A stretch of DNA of 64,000 bases from positions 2,112,001-2,176,000 of the forward strand of contig OZ220744.1 of the NCBI GenBank assembly GCA_965116925.1, read 5' to 3'. Below the pieces are notes generated by a model. It worked only from the letters and a program-made list of their open reading frames with translations, had not been told where the DNA came from and did not search any database. Both the position numbers and the translations under genes were made by a program. Positions 53,098 through 58,273 of this stretch are shown here, one piece after another. The DNA is from Candidatus Poribacteria bacterium (lineage in GTDB: Bacteria; Poribacteria; WGA-4E; PCPOR2b). The stretch's first letter is position 1. Each line of letters opens with the position of its first letter.

Positions 53098-54612
53098 TCA
53101 TCCAAGCATCAGTGCCCCTAGCTCTGCTTCATCTGTCTCCGATGGTTGAAGAATACCGGCAATTCTTCCGTTATACATCACAGCAATCCGGTCGCTCAAA
53201 CTCAAGAGTTCTTCCAAATCGACGGAGATGAGTAGAATTGCCTTGGATCGGTTGCGGGCGTCGATTAATTGTTGATAAACAAACTGGGCGGCGTTAATGT
53301 CCAAACCGCGTGTTGGGTGTGCGGCAATGATAAGTTCGGGATCACTTTCGAGCTCACGCGCCACAACTACTTTTTGCTGATTACCGCCGGAGAGGGTCCG
53401 AATTGGGAGATTGATACCTCCGACCCGGATTTCGTACTTTTTGATCACATCATTTGTGAATTGATGGGCGGTTTTCCGCTGCAACAATCCATGTCGGCAG
53501 AATGGCGGCTGGCTGTGGCTGCCGAGAATTAGGTTTTCATCGACCCGGTCCTCGAGACTGATACCGTGGCGATGTCGGTCAGCGGGTAGATGCGCCACGC
53601 GCTTCCGCCGAATCTCAGCCGGAGATCGATTCACAATAGACTCGCTATTGAGGGTGATGGTGCCACTTTCGCTTTTCCGCAATCCCGTTAGCACCTCAAT
53701 GAGTTCATTTTGTCCGTTCCCCTCCACCCCGGCGATCCCTAAAATTTCCCCCGCGAAAATGTCGAGGTCAATCCCGTCCAACAGGGCCCGTCCGTTCTTG
53801 GCGCGGAGTGTAACATCTTCCAGATGTAGCATGGGTTCGCTAGGTGTATCGGATCTGCTCTGGTGTGTGCTATTGTTGAAAGTTTTTTTGCCGATCATCA
53901 ACTCGGACAGTTCAGTGCTATCTGTCCCCGTTCTGGGAAGTGATGCAACGGATTTGCCACTACGCATCACTGTAACTGTATCAGCAACTGCCATTACTTC
54001 ACTGAGTTTATGCGTAATCAGAACAACGCTTTTTCCCTCTGCTTTCAACCCGTGTAGACAGTCAAACAGTCCAGCGACTTCCTGCGGCGCAAGCACGGCT
54101 GTTGGTTCATCAAGGATCAAGATCTCTGCACCATGATAGAGGGCTTTGAGAATTTCTGCATACTGCTGTGCGCCAATCGGGAGGGATTCCACCTTGGCAT
54201 CCAAATCGAGATGGAAACCGAGTTGCTCAGCGAGCCCTGTGATCGTACGGTGCGCTGTTGCGGTATCCAGAAGGGTTTTGAATCGGCGTGGCTCTTTCGC
54301 TAGGATTATGTTTTCGAGCGCAGTCAGTGCAGGGATAAGGGTGAAGTGCTGCTGCACCATACCAATGCCGAGTTGAATGGCGGTACGAGAGTTGTTGATG
54401 CGAACCGGCGCATCCCAAAAGTAGATCTCCCCCTCGTTCGGCTGGTAAAGTCCGTAAAGGATCTTCATCAATGTCGATTTGCCAGCCCCATTTTCTCCAA
54501 CAATGGCGTGGATCTCGCCCTGTTGCAGCGAGAAGTTTGCCCCGTCATTCGCCAGAACTTTGTCGAACCGTTTGGTGATGCTGTGCATTCTGATGAGCGG
54601 TGGGTTGGTCAT
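53098..54612 (-). CDS. Sugar/nucleoside ABC transporter ATP-binding protein with two ATPase domains
   Basis: GENGAGKST, LDEPTAVL, GVEGNGQ, LSGGNQQK, PTRGLD. Confidence 0.92.
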   Translation of the reverse strand: MTNPPLIRMHSITKRFDKVLANDGANFSLQQGEIHAIVGENGAGKSTLMKILYGLYQPNEGEIYFWDAPVRINNSRTAIQLGIGMVQQHFTLIPALTALENIILAKEPRRFKTLLDTATAHRTITGLAEQLGFHLDLDAKVESLPIGAQQYAEILKALYHGAEILILDEPTAVLAPQEVAGLFDCLHGLKAEGKSVVLITHKLSEVMAVADTVTVMRSGKSVASLPRTGTDSTELSELMIGKKTFNNSTHQSRSDTPSEPMLHLEDVTLRAKNGRALLDGIDLDIFAGEILGIAGVEGNGQNELIEVLTGLRKSESGTITLNSESIVNRSPAEIRRKRVAHLPADRHRHGISLEDRVDENLILGSHSQPPFCRHGLLQRKTAHQFTNDVIKKYEIRVGGINLPIRTLSGGNQQKVVVARELESDPELIIAAHPTRGLDINAAQFVYQQLIDARNRSKAILLISVDLEELLSLSDRIAVMYNGRIAGILQPSETDEAELGALMLG

Positions 54613-54737
54613 AAAGAGCTTGAAACGTGATGCGTGAAACGTGAAAACTATTGGTTCATTAGCTCATTGGTGCAGTCGGTCTTGGAACATCTGCTTTTCG
54701 GCTTCTGTTGCACAACCACTTAACATGAACCAAGATT

Positions 54738-57700
54738 TTATCGCCTGATTTTCATACGAGGATGCCAATGTTCGATTAGGTTAGATGGGATTTCGCGGAG
54801 GAACATCGATCCTCCCCGCTCATAGCCATCTTGGCGGCGGAGGACAGACGTGAGATAAAGCCGCGCTTGAGCGCGAGTCATACCAACGTAGAACAGGCGT
54901 CGTTCCTCCTCAATTTCCTCTAACGATTCATTGCTACGCCAAATCGGGAATGTTCCCTGCTCCAGCCCCATGATAATCACGACCGGGAATTCTGTTCCCT
55001 TTGCTGTATGCAGCGTCATCAACGTGATTTTGTCCTCTTCAATCTCTACTTCATCGGCACTGTTAATCAACTTCTGATAATCGAGAAAATTGGTGAGGTG
55101 CCTTTCAACACTAGTCGTTTCAAAATGTAAAACGCCGTTCATGAACCTTGCGCGTCTCGCCTCCCAATCCCTGTCTTCTGGTGATTCCTCAAGCTGCGTT
55201 TGCTTGAGTATATTAATCAGGTCTTGAAGCGATTGTTTCTCCGTAGGTTGCAGATCCGTTTCAAGCCAATCTAGATCTGGCGGATGTGTCCGAACATACC
55301 GCGCAGCAGCTTGGTAATAGGTTTTTATTCCGCCTGCCGTCTCTGCATCCATTCCGAGGTCCTGTTGGTCCCGTTGAGCAGCAAGGATCCCAATTCCGAC
55401 CAACGGTAAGAGTTCGGGCAGGGATTTCACTTCACGGCGGCGCAGATCCTCTTTGATCAGTTCATCAAACACCTCGTGATTGACCCGTACGTCCTCAATC
55501 GCTTGGTGCATAGTACCATGCTCGATATTGAATTTGGTCGCAAGGGCTTCTAAACTACAGCTTTCACGTGGATAGAGACGTTGCGCTGTGGCAAGGGTAT
55601 CGTAGTAAGGATTAGAAAGTCCATGCTTCAGATATTTTCCGAGGTCCCGTTCAAGCACAAGATTATCAAAATCGGCGATATTGTGTCCGATGAGGATGCG
55701 ATCTTGGATGAAACTCAGAAACTGTGGTAGCACAATCTCAATGCCCGGCTCATTTGCTACAGTCTCGTTGTCAATACCGTGGATAGTCGTACTCGATTTC
55801 GGGATCCTGCCTGTCGGTTTGACATATTGATGGTAGCTTTGAACCTTACTTCCAATTGCGCTTAAACGATTCGCATAGATCTCAATAATCTCCGCAGTTT
55901 TCGGGTTATTGTCTATCGTTTCGAGGTCGTAGACAATCATGTCCGCAAGGTTTGGCTTTTCAAAGCTGCTCAAGAGTCGTTGACACAGTTTTAATGCGGT
56001 AACGCTGCGAGATTGAGTGAGCTGCGATTTGTTGAGTTGGATGACGTTTGCATCTGCACCGGTCGCAGAGCCGAGCAGGATTGTTGTATCTTTGCGTTCA
56101 GGCAGCTCTCCAAAGTCCCCAATTAGGATGTTGACCCCACTCTCATCCACTGTCGGGGTCAGGGAAAAATCGGGAGGCAGAAGATCTATATAAATTGTGA
56201 GGTTGAGGTATCGCTCCAACGTCAACCGAATAATGTGGGCAGCACAGTAAGAATCAATCCCGTAGTTTGCTGTCAGATGGATGGGATCTCCACGGTCAAT
56301 GGCACTATACAGGGTATCTGTCGCAGCGCGAAGTCCGGGGATTTCCGATTGATTTTCCATCTTGTGCATGTCTTCGGATTGGTACGGACTGCGTCTCTGC
56401 GAAAGGAGATCGAAGAGCCGGATCGCGATGGTATGTATCTGTTCACCTTCAATCCCATTATGAAAATTATCAATCTGTTGGAAGAATTGACGTACATTCC
56501 AACGGGTGAAGGGCCCCACATCGTCTGGATAGTCATCAATTTTTCTGAGCAGTTCAATTAGCGTAACACCTTTCTGTTGTGCTAGCCACTTCAACCGGAC
56601 CAACGTGAGGTCGTCGATTAGCTGCTGTGGAAAATTGACTGCCTTCTCAATATCGCGGGGGAGTTGCCACTGGACGAAGTTCAGATAGGAGAGAATCCCT
56701 TGTGCGTGTTCCTCCTGGAAGGAGTTGATCCGTCCAATACGCTGAAACCCGACGCGCTCTTGGTGCAGCCGATCGACTAACGTATCTGCCAATTGGTGGG
56801 TGCGGTAGAAAACCCCGATGTCACCGTAGGAGTAATGTCGTCCTTCCACCAGTTTCCGAATCAACGTAATAACGTGGTTTGCCTCTGTATCAGGGGTGTC
56901 TAACGTGTAGTGATAGAGAGTGTTTCCAGCGTCCTTGTGCGTTTTCAGAACGCTCTCCTTCTGGCGTGTATTTTTGGCAATCACCGCCCCCGCAGCGCGC
57001 AGGATCCGCTCACTGCACCGATAATGTTCTTCTAACTCAACCACCGTTGGCTTGAAATCTTTCTTGAATTGTTCAATATATTGGGGACTGGAGCCGCGCC
57101 AGCTATAGATAGATTGATCTTCGTCCGCTACGACCATCACGTTATGTTGAGGAGCGTGGGAGAGGAGTTTGAGCAGGGTATACTGTGCAGCGTTAATATC
57201 TTGGTATTCATCAACGAGGATGAAGCGGATGTCATTGTGGTACTTTGCCCGAATGTCAGGCACCTGTTCAAGCACTTCGACAGATTTGGAGATCAGATCA
57301 TCGAAGTCAAGGGCGTTATGAGCGGCGAGTTTTGTCTGATAAGCTTTGAGCAGATCAGTAATGTCTTGCACTTGCACCGGATCGTCAATAACTGTTCCAT
57401 CACCTAGCCAAATTTCATTTTGATTAGCGGTTGGATCTTCCAACTTCACCTTGTACGCACCGATGATGTCGCGCAGCATCCACGGGGGGTAGGTGAGCCG
57501 ATTCTGACGAAGTTCGCGTAGACATTCGATTAGTACCTCTTCCTGTGTCTCCTGACTGAAAATTGCGAAGTTTACCCCCAGCCCAATTTCTTCTGAGTGC
57601 TGACGGAGCAGGCGGACGCAAAAGGCGTGGAATGTATGGATACGAACCTCTAACCCTTGCGTTGTGCCGAGCAGTTCTTTGATCCGATCAAGCATCTCCT

Positions 57701-57911
57701 GTGCGGCTTTGTTCGTGAAGGTAACGGCAAAAATCTGCTGCGGTGCTACCTGATGGTTTCGGATAAGATGTGCAATTCGGTGGGTAATGACATTTGTCTT
57801 GCCCGTGCCCGGTCCTGCTACCACCAGCATCGCACCGTCGGTATGGGCTGCGGCTTGCTGTTGCTTTTCATTGAGTTCCTGTAGGAGTTCCATAATCATC
57901 ACCTCATTCAA
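54738..57911 (-). CDS. UvrD/PcrA superfamily 1 helicase with inserted DEDDh exonuclease and degenerate RecJ-like DHH segment
   Basis: AGPGTGKT, TFTNKAA, DEYQD, DQSIYSWRG, TLHTAKGTEF, EERRLFYVGMTRA; exonuclease motifs YDLET, GHNIADFD, HQAIED. The true start is probably 57899 or 57893. Confidence 0.9.
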   Translation of the reverse strand: MNEVMIMELLQELNEKQQQAAAHTDGAMLVVAGPGTGKTNVITHRIAHLIRNHQVAPQQIFAVTFTNKAAQEMLDRIKELLGTTQGLEVRIHTFHAFCVRLLRQHSEEIGLGVNFAIFSQETQEEVLIECLRELRQNRLTYPPWMLRDIIGAYKVKLEDPTANQNEIWLGDGTVIDDPVQVQDITDLLKAYQTKLAAHNALDFDDLISKSVEVLEQVPDIRAKYHNDIRFILVDEYQDINAAQYTLLKLLSHAPQHNVMVVADEDQSIYSWRGSSPQYIEQFKKDFKPTVVELEEHYRCSERILRAAGAVIAKNTRQKESVLKTHKDAGNTLYHYTLDTPDTEANHVITLIRKLVEGRHYSYGDIGVFYRTHQLADTLVDRLHQERVGFQRIGRINSFQEEHAQGILSYLNFVQWQLPRDIEKAVNFPQQLIDDLTLVRLKWLAQQKGVTLIELLRKIDDYPDDVGPFTRWNVRQFFQQIDNFHNGIEGEQIHTIAIRLFDLLSQRRSPYQSEDMHKMENQSEIPGLRAATDTLYSAIDRGDPIHLTANYGIDSYCAAHIIRLTLERYLNLTIYIDLLPPDFSLTPTVDESGVNILIGDFGELPERKDTTILLGSATGADANVIQLNKSQLTQSRSVTALKLCQRLLSSFEKPNLADMIVYDLETIDNNPKTAEIIEIYANRLSAIGSKVQSYHQYVKPTGRIPKSSTTIHGIDNETVANEPGIEIVLPQFLSFIQDRILIGHNIADFDNLVLERDLGKYLKHGLSNPYYDTLATAQRLYPRESCSLEALATKFNIEHGTMHQAIEDVRVNHEVFDELIKEDLRRREVKSLPELLPLVGIGILAAQRDQQDLGMDAETAGGIKTYYQAAARYVRTHPPDLDWLETDLQPTEKQSLQDLINILKQTQLEESPEDRDWEARRARFMNGVLHFETTSVERHLTNFLDYQKLINSADEVEIEEDKITLMTLHTAKGTEFPVVIIMGLEQGTFPIWRSNESLEEIEEERRLFYVGMTRAQARLYLTSVLRRQDGYERGGSMFLREIPSNLIEHWHPRMKIRR

Positions 57912-57929
57912 TATGTTTTGGTTAATTAT

Positions 57930-57958
57930 ATTTTAACATATTGATAAAAACAAAGCAA
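57930..57958 (-). promoter_or_regulatory. Sigma-70 promoter TTGCTT-N17-TAAAAT for the helicase gene
   Basis: Minus-strand match with extended TG. Confidence 0.5.
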
Positions 57959-58273
57959 ACAAAATATGATGCGTGAAACGTGAGGACACTGGCTCATTAG
58001 TTGATTATAGTGAATTCAAAAAATAAAGGAACACTTGCGCCGCCCGGTAGGTGCGGTTAGAAACCGCACCGCATCGGCGCAGTTAGAAACAGCGCCTACC
58101 AAACAGGAGAACGGTAGTTTCATTTTCCTAACCGCACCGGTTTGGCGTGTCCCATTAATTCTAAAATCTACTATGAGTTCATTACTCATGCCAAAAGAAA
58201 GTGTAAAGCATGAATGCCTGACAGAGGAAGGTATACGGCAAGCGCGCAGTCATACGCTTGCCGCTGACTTTGA

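Follow-up and report, generated by a model that had tools for sequence, protein, structure and literature searches.

What is encoded on the minus strand at 54738..57911 of a 64,000-nucleotide (nt) stretch of a Candidatus Poribacteria genome (contig OZ220744.1, positions 2,112,001 to 2,176,000), and what could such a protein do? We call the whole stretch the window and count positions within it. A first-pass annotation, made from the sequence without database searches, had read the gene as a UvrD-type helicase containing a degenerate RecJ-like segment that itself contains an intact DEDDh exonuclease. Our analysis indicates that this three-level nesting is genuine: a PcrA/UvrD paralogue carries, inside its 2B subdomain, a whole but catalytically dead RecJ DHH domain, interrupted by a complete 3′–5′ exonuclease.

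Gene and assembly

The open reading frame runs uninterrupted from 57911 to 54738 and has 1057 codons counted from TTG; residue numbers here count from that TTG. Because close homologues are mostly 1051 amino acids (aa) long and the ATG at 57893 has GAGGTG 6 nt ahead, this ATG is probably the true start. The whole gene, written UvrD[dead RecJ-DHH[DEDDh]], would then span 54738..57893 and encode 1051 aa, as judged from the frame, the homologue lengths and a full-length structure model (mean predicted local distance difference test, pLDDT, 90.5; predicted template modelling score, pTM, 0.87).

The fusion gene is real and intact. A chimeric assembly, which the first-pass annotation had named as a risk, is dismissed because a 9,032-nt contig from another run (X3) spans 54400-58028 with 66 substitutions and zero gaps, crossing the whole gene. 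Two further runs cover all 30 bins of the region, piecewise. Contigs from an RNA run also cover the gene, and such contigs are no demonstration of transcription. A scan for promoters and terminators at the gene stayed at chance level.

Helicase motor and 2B subdomain

Pfam places UvrD-helicase at 13-287 (PF00580, E 4e-80) and UvrD_C at 292-1022. What we take to be motifs Q, I, Ia, II, III, IV, V and VI are all intact in the query, as had been noticed at first pass. The N-terminal half (13-400; 56712..57875, minus strand, as are all features below) holds subdomains 1A, 1B and the first part of 2A with motifs Q to IVa, and is defined by PF00580, the PcrA structure 1pjr and the motifs; Walker A lies at 57795-57818 and Walker B at 57198-57218. 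K38, D234/E235 and R1013 are kept in 67 of the 69 members of a non-redundant set, one of the misses being a truncated sequence. This set was made by removing three near-duplicates from 72 full-length fusions, and identity within it goes down to 24%.

PcrA 1pjr matches with E 1e-100 and aligns to query residues 7-458 and then 920-1048 (PcrA 512-648); E. coli UvrD aligns to residues 8-500. Since PcrA aligns both before and after the roughly 400 extra residues, we place the insert within 2B. The N-terminal part of 2B (401-510; 56382..56711) follows from the PcrA alignments, and its C-terminal helices (906-957; 55041..55196) from the alignment of query 920 onward with PcrA 512 onward. The first-pass annotation had seen a long extra region where 2B normally sits. 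The extra region stands, but 2B is complete around it and has not been replaced. Next comes the C-terminal part of 2A with motifs V and VI (958-1050; 54762..55040; Pfam, PcrA alignment and motifs), with no Tudor domain after it. The full-length model has the 1A/1B/2A/2B fold (Z 44.1 against 1pjr, 595 residues aligned). By root-mean-square deviation (rmsd) it resembles Rep 1uaa_B (4.9) and apo PcrA 1pjr (6.3) more closely than the DNA-bound PcrA/UvrD structures 3pjr/2is1 (12.7-13.2), forms usually labelled open and closed.

Several features of the motor are specific to the family. His372 is found in 70 of 72 members at a motif IVa position where PcrA has Asn. The GIG site in 2B, with which PcrA/UvrD presumably bind the duplex, has given way to an acidic string (56604-56636), and a GIG-like string occurs in one of the 69 non-redundant members. 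The Tudor domain is absent: the tail beyond motif VI is 28-60 aa in 68/69 members, and that of the canonical PcrA of this genome is longer. The fusion shares 35% identity with that PcrA over the N-half, and scores 499 bits with the PcrA equivalog TIGR01073, below the curated cut-off of 911. Because of this score, the lost GIG site, the short tail and the separate canonical PcrA, the protein is, by sequence, a PcrA/UvrD paralogue and not a PcrA/UvrD orthologue. His372 and the GIG loss suggest that the motor was re-tuned.

Nested exonuclease

The innermost domain is a predicted DEDDh 3′–5′ exonuclease at 657-820 (55452..55943), placed by PF00929 and a fold match to 1j53. RNase_T (PF00929) matches at 659-815 (55467-55937) with E 4e-26 and 92.9 bits against a cut-off of 24. 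Catalytic residues D662, E664, D749, H802 and D807 are all present, in an RNase H-like fold with the ExoI D-x-E, ExoII D and ExoIII H-x4-D motifs, in agreement with the intact domain first reported at about 55465-55940. The domain model matches E. coli epsilon (1j53) with Z 23.3 and rmsd 1.5 Å, and the ExoDinG structure 9ii8 with Z 23.0; its closest solved relatives are the PolC exonuclease and epsilon. All five residues are complete in 66/69 non-redundant members. Decay has gone one step further in L045, L046, L047 and P0194, where these residues are degraded but the motor is retained, with a changed Walker B in P0194.

Dead RecJ domain around the exonuclease

On either side of the exonuclease lie an N-terminal part at 517-655 (55947..56363) with remnants of RecJ motifs I-III, delimited by hhalign, VIA-align to 1ir6 and colinearity, and C-terminal helices at 822-898 (55218..55448) with a remnant of motif IV, delimited by hhalign and a structural range to 898. 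The three RecJ-like segments picked out at first pass are at 524-561 (56229-56342), 636-647 (55971-56006) and 831-844 (55380-55421). Flank profiles were built from an alignment of the 72 full-length fusions and compared with 30 canonical Poribacteria RecJ proteins. The N-flank (515-652) matches canonical RecJ with an hhalign probability of 96.5 (E 1e-9) and the C-flank (822-885) with 72.5 (E 3e-5), the latter reaching 92.1% against RecJ proteins that carry an inserted DEDDh domain (RecJ-DEDDh, see below). Controls, two reversed flanks and two neighbouring segments, gave 0.3 or less. Hidden Markov models (HMMs) of the N- and C-flanks match 30/30 and 28/30 RecJs at P<0.001, and reversed HMMs match 0/30.

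A model of the insert (pLDDT 88) aligns with Thermus thermophilus RecJ 1ir6 by VIA-align with Z 17.4 and rmsd 2.6 Å over 178 residues. The match covers query 517-898 and RecJ 49-268, that is, both flanks, and other DHH folds follow (2zxo, Z 16.8; 8y30, Z 16.0). A distant profile of six members, made with neither exonuclease nor RecJ seed, gave five weak flank matches in 251 Chloroflexota genomes; all five are DHH proteins of RecJ type, four with full motif I.

Other searches were negative or marginal. Pairwise BLAST of the flanks against the genome and its own RecJ gave no match, Pfam found DHH in 0/28 single inserts, and the Foldseek matches listed for the insert model were all exonucleases, with RecJ absent among them. 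A PDB profile search gave DHH matches below threshold only (5x4i, E 0.04; 6raw, 1.3; 5f54, 2). The ESM Atlas search with the N-flank returned three DHH clusters at 0.77-0.78, which we treat as a lead only.

RecJ is defined by metal-binding motifs I-IV in the DHH domain, followed by DHHA1 (motifs VI and VII) and an oligonucleotide-binding (OB) fold (PMC4846377). DxDxDG or DHH occurs at the homologous place in none of the 72 members, four string matches falling elsewhere, and neither TVDxG or GTxAD nor HGGH occurs in any of the 69 non-redundant ones. The loss of catalytic residues suspected at first pass holds for all 72 members. DHHA1 and the OB fold are absent as well: the colinear match stops at column 472 of the 586 in the RecJ-DEDDh profile, and in 1ir6 the structural alignment goes no further than residue 268. 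The dead DHH is net acidic. On profile and model evidence, the flanks are a whole RecJ DHH domain, catalytically dead, RecJ-derived yet not a RecJ. The proposed RecJ origin stands, and what had been taken for loose pieces is better described as one domain. The first-pass annotation had said that flanks with no profile or structural match to the DHH fold would undo its reading; both kinds of match are present.

Origin of the nesting

A profile search covered 1.84 billion representatives, and its best 150 matches were sorted by motif into 88 UvrD-type, 13 RecJ-type and 49 other proteins. Pfam on 42 of these 150 gave 27 with UvrD and RNase_T and 13 with DHH and RNase_T, 12 of the 13 also having DHHA1 and RecJ_OB. 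These intact RecJ-DEDDh proteins (among them P0191, P0198, P0200, P0209, P0214, P0218, P0221, P0222, P0229, P0242, P0243, P0246) are about 740 aa long with the DEDDh inside the DHH domain; by family, a single chain would combine nucleases of opposite polarity. Named carriers are Elusimicrobiota, Hydrogenedentes, Brevinematales and one unplaced Firmicutes bin.

The fusion insert is colinear with RecJ-DEDDh across 390 columns (probability 100), with an identical insertion point. In the 33 of 67 motif-selected proteins that the patterns parsed, the first exonuclease Asp lies 27-29 residues past the GVGVxFK motif, compared with 26 in the query (27 if the equivalent start is taken). Motif IV follows this Asp at 174-180 residues, compared with 177 in the query. 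The simplest history for these sequences is that a RecJ(DEDDh) segment was captured by the helicase, much as the first-pass annotation had proposed for a RecJ-DnaQ module. The likely donor type is still extant, as an intact RecJ with DEDDh at the same point. The DEDDh tree leaves the sister group of the fusion unresolved and does not place RecJ-DEDDh there, which gives two independent insertions at one site a small probability.

Distribution and constraint

Insert matches were found in 140 of 151 Poribacteria genomes (124 of the 131 high-quality ones), one match being a broken piece, and the named homologues are Ca. Poribacteria. No insert match was found in the four single-contig genomes of one genus (g2). 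In Chloroflexota 21 loci were found. Among 251 sampled genomes of that phylum, in each of which up to 11 candidates were scored, there were two full matches (one of them the search centre) and one fragment, so by these searches the distribution there is patchy. A third clade contains many Gemmatimonadota proteins. The main clades recur in both the helicase and the exonuclease trees, and fusions fall on one side of a branch against 17 and 11 UvrD-like proteins of the same genomes, with weak support (65 and 80), a picture compatible with a single origin.

Measured against 20 close relatives, the ratio of nonsynonymous to synonymous substitution rates (dN/dS) stands at 0.09 in the motor N-half and 0.11 in DEDDh, and at 0.16-0.22 in the two parts of the dead DHH; by this measure all parts, the dead DHH included, are under purifying selection. 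Motor and DEDDh sites are retained together in at least three phyla. Phage and plasmid records gave nothing that covers 80% of the protein (0/198 and 0/3414 matching records), and DEDDh was found in 0/77 helicase frames of the best 80 viral loci.

Four candidate short fusions were rejected, as PolC (two), a DEDDh-BRCT-like protein (one) and an annotated stand-alone exonuclease (one). A 971-codon UvrD frame in G022 was ruled out as a degenerate fusion on 800 aa of the frame. The ESM Atlas holds shorter UvrD+RNase_T clusters (825-880 aa) from Cyanobacteriota, Bacillota, Bacteroidota and phages. In G032 and G018 (L052:4468-11107, L053:3975-10573) the fusion gene is tandemly duplicated, the second copy having 44-46% identity to the query insert against 54-55%, with its exonuclease residues kept. 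Thermus plasmid genes annotated as RecQ-family helicases (H153, H155, H161, H165) also match DEDDh, another helicase-exonuclease fusion.

Repair gene set

The genome holds a separate intact RecJ, a canonical PcrA, an AddA-like protein and a fourth UvrD-like protein, which settles whether the fusion stands beside, or in place of, recJ and pcrA genes; RecJ occurs in 61/61 sampled Poribacteria genomes. MutS, MutL, XseA and UvrC are also present, MutL with a motif that we take to be of the endonuclease type. In this 99% complete genome the fusion is the sole PF00929 match, and that search found no stand-alone ExoI-, ExoX- or DnaQ-type protein. Across the 61 genomes 56 of 57 PF00929 matches fall within the fusion frame (compared by eye). 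One DnaE and no PolC were found in the genome; this DnaE keeps full PHP metal-ligand motifs, on a ligand list that we assume from mycobacterial DnaE1. We doubt an epsilon role because DnaE keeps these ligands and g2 is without any DEDDh match; from these sequences the fusion is probably not the replicative proofreader.

Proposed mechanism and competing readings

We favour, with a probability of about 0.5, a coupled enzyme in which a 3′–5′ motor and a 3′–5′ nuclease in one chain would remove displaced 3′ strands in repair. By the history outlined above, an ancient PcrA/UvrD paralogue took the DHH(DEDDh) part of a RecJ-DEDDh, without DHHA1 and the OB fold, into a 2B loop; the RecJ active site then decayed, whereas the motor and the DEDDh site were retained. 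Driven by ATP and moving 3′–5′ along single-stranded DNA (ssDNA), the motor would be loaded at a 3′ tail, a flap or a nicked strand, and the exonuclease tethered to it would follow and digest the displaced 3′ end. As a rigid mount, the dead DHH may hold the nuclease in position, and it probably changes how 2B makes its regulatory swing. The likeliest setting would be 3′ strand removal, as in mismatch excision from a MutL nick, at 3′ flaps or on the invading ends of D-loops.

UvrD-type motors move 3′–5′ (PMC13646824) and DEDDh enzymes degrade from the 3′ end (PMC12345164); with matching polarities, the strand tracked by the motor would offer substrate to the nuclease. In E. coli, strand excision uses UvrD and then ExoI or ExoX as separate proteins (PMC8744996). 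Coupling is favoured because both active sites are kept together, the polarity is the same and no stand-alone ExoI-, ExoX- or DnaQ-type protein was found in this genome, which does have MutS, MutL, XseA, RecJ, UvrC and canonical PcrA. The recurrence of the main clades in both trees, the low dN/dS of all segments and the nearness of the model to apo PcrA and Rep are counted on the same side. The pTM of 0.87 suggests a defined domain arrangement.

A number of observations weigh against coupling. The weak step is geometry, namely how far the nuclease site lies from where ssDNA leaves the motor. Subdomain 2B normally faces the duplex rather than the trailing 3′ end, so that coupling may need a large 2B swing, and the 2B pose of the DNA-free model may be merely training bias. 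Three lineages keep the gene but have lost the exonuclease residues. Genus g2 is without the fusion and any PF00929 match, yet keeps MutS, MutL, XseA and UvrC, and in the co-loss test the PolA exonuclease is likewise retained; since all tested repair genes are kept, no pathway can be linked to the absence of the fusion. Among 28 annotated neighbours there is no conserved repair gene (one RecD2, at two loci, the remainder neither repair nor defence), and the neighbourhoods of 41 loci have no gene family common across lineages.

A looser arrangement is possible but less likely. In it, motor and exonuclease would be largely independent, the fusion would only deliver the general 3′–5′ ssDNA exonuclease of the cell to ssDNA and forks, and the dead DHH would be a passive spacer, retained because the protein would misfold without it. 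The absence of partner genes nearby, the loss in g2 and the exonuclease-dead lineages suit it, as does the faster evolution of the dead DHH (dN/dS 0.16-0.22 against 0.09-0.11), whose net acidic character argues against a DNA-guiding surface. The joint retention of both sites in at least three phyla speaks against it, and so do His372 and the GIG loss if the motor was re-tuned. We think it unlikely that the protein is a replisome accessory, a Rep-like fork helicase bringing an epsilon-like proofreader to a phylum without stand-alone dnaQ. The concentration of PF00929 matches in the fusion, the closeness of its DEDDh to PolC exonuclease and epsilon, and the single DnaE without PolC point that way; the complete PHP motifs of DnaE and the DEDDh-free g2 genomes point the other way, 10/10 Chloroflexota carriers have additional DEDDh proteins, and no convincing clamp-binding motif was found in the fusion.

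An RNA-directed or CRISPR-related role, trimming RNA 3′ ends or R-loops, or prespacers in the manner of Cas2-DEDDh, is quite improbable. DEDDh enzymes do include RNases and prespacer trimmers (PDB 8fyc, 8h18; PMC10284694), but the fusion has no Tudor domain for RNA polymerase binding, no cas gene lies among the 28 annotated neighbours and the closest structures are DNA exonucleases. We give hardly any credence to a plain UvrD-DEDDh fusion with flanks of other than RecJ origin. The silence of Pfam (28/28 single inserts) and of BLAST against the own RecJ, and a DEDDh tree without RecJ-DEDDh as sister, would agree with it; it is contradicted by the 1ir6 match over both flanks (Z 17.4), the RecJ profile and spacing, and the profile made without DEDDh or RecJ seeds, which picked RecJ-type DHH in all five weak flank matches.

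A bolder form of the coupled mechanism is doubtful. Subdomain 2B acts as an autoinhibitor in Rep and UvrD1 (PMC13646824), and the CMG complex shows dead RecJ homologues in the service of a helicase (PMC3307487). On these grounds the dead RecJ could be a built-in activator, a bacterial counterpart of Cdc45 within one chain. It would lift an autoinhibitory 2B off the duplex, so that a monomer becomes a processive helicase, and would guide the displaced 3′ strand to the exonuclease. One polypeptide would then perform the whole excision step of MutH-independent mismatch repair, or of 3′-strand removal, in Poribacteria and several other phyla.

Comparison with known systems

Helicase-exonuclease fusions are already known; this family is uncharacterised. 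Searches of the open-access literature for this architecture and for 2B insertions gave no description of the fusion or of RecJ-DEDDh, subscription journals being outside their scope, and databases name the members only as UvrD-domain or epsilon-family proteins. The fusion resembles PcrA/UvrD/Rep in all motor motifs and the four-subdomain fold, but has about 400 residues in 2B, no GIG, His for Asn in motif IVa and no Tudor domain, and forms a separate lineage coexisting with canonical PcrA. It shares the DHH fold with RecJ, and colinearity and insertion point with RecJ-DEDDh, but lacks DHHA1, the OB fold and, in all 72 members checked, the catalytic motifs.

In RecB/AddA/AdnAB, too, a UvrD-type motor is fused to a nuclease. 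The machine there has several subunits and resects ends, and its nuclease is a PD-(D/E)XK domain at the C-terminus; the present genome has its AddA-like gene separate from the fusion. ExoDinG (S. aureus DinG with an N-terminal DEDDh) likewise has a helicase and a DEDDh exonuclease in one chain (PMC12345164, PMC11981726), but its motor is a superfamily 2 (SF2) 5′–3′ one and its exonuclease terminal, whereas the fusion has a superfamily 1A (SF1A) motor of the same polarity as its doubly nested exonuclease. WRN, a RecQ helicase, joins a 3′–5′ motor and a 3′–5′ exonuclease (PMC1435914, PMC2653227), but is SF2, eukaryotic and of unrelated origin, with an N-terminal exonuclease. Cdc45 and inactive archaeal RecJ homologues are dead RecJ/DHH domains that a helicase machine has likewise kept for their structural role (PMC3307487); Cdc45 is a separate CMG subunit, whereas here the domain lies in cis on a bacterial SF1 motor, without DHHA1. 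The fusion is a second case of a dead RecJ maintained on a helicase.

How the 2B subdomain works as the regulatory switch of SF1A helicases is disputed, with autoinhibitor and wrench as the two views (PMC13646824). A 400-residue nuclease module placed in 2B, with the duplex-binding site gone and the arrangement kept across phyla, is a natural experiment on that role. The three-level nesting is traceable, with a likely donor type extant, and the protein is nearly the sole DEDDh nuclease of a whole sponge-symbiont phylum. The exonucleases of MutH-independent repair are little known (Pseudomonas; PMC8744996), and a one-chain motor-nuclease, if true, makes that exonuclease step testable.

Additional observations

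MutS of g2 (G003, G007, G022, G038) is 1277-1302 codons long, with about 380 extra residues in the ATPase region; our guess is an intein. Poribacteria RecJ frames (L001, L069-L097) have about 850-900 codons, with a C-terminal extension past the 546-position model. At G011:C1:2707131-2713913 an 1860-codon frame with four RecJ matches adjoins another RecJ gene, either an internal duplication or an assembly artefact.

The fusion gene is flanked by high-copy intergenic repeats at 54621-54660, 58005-58040 and 58043-58174, which have 134, 137 and 466 genome matches of at least 24 nt and very high depth in other runs. An inverted repeat lies inside the repeat at 58043-58174.

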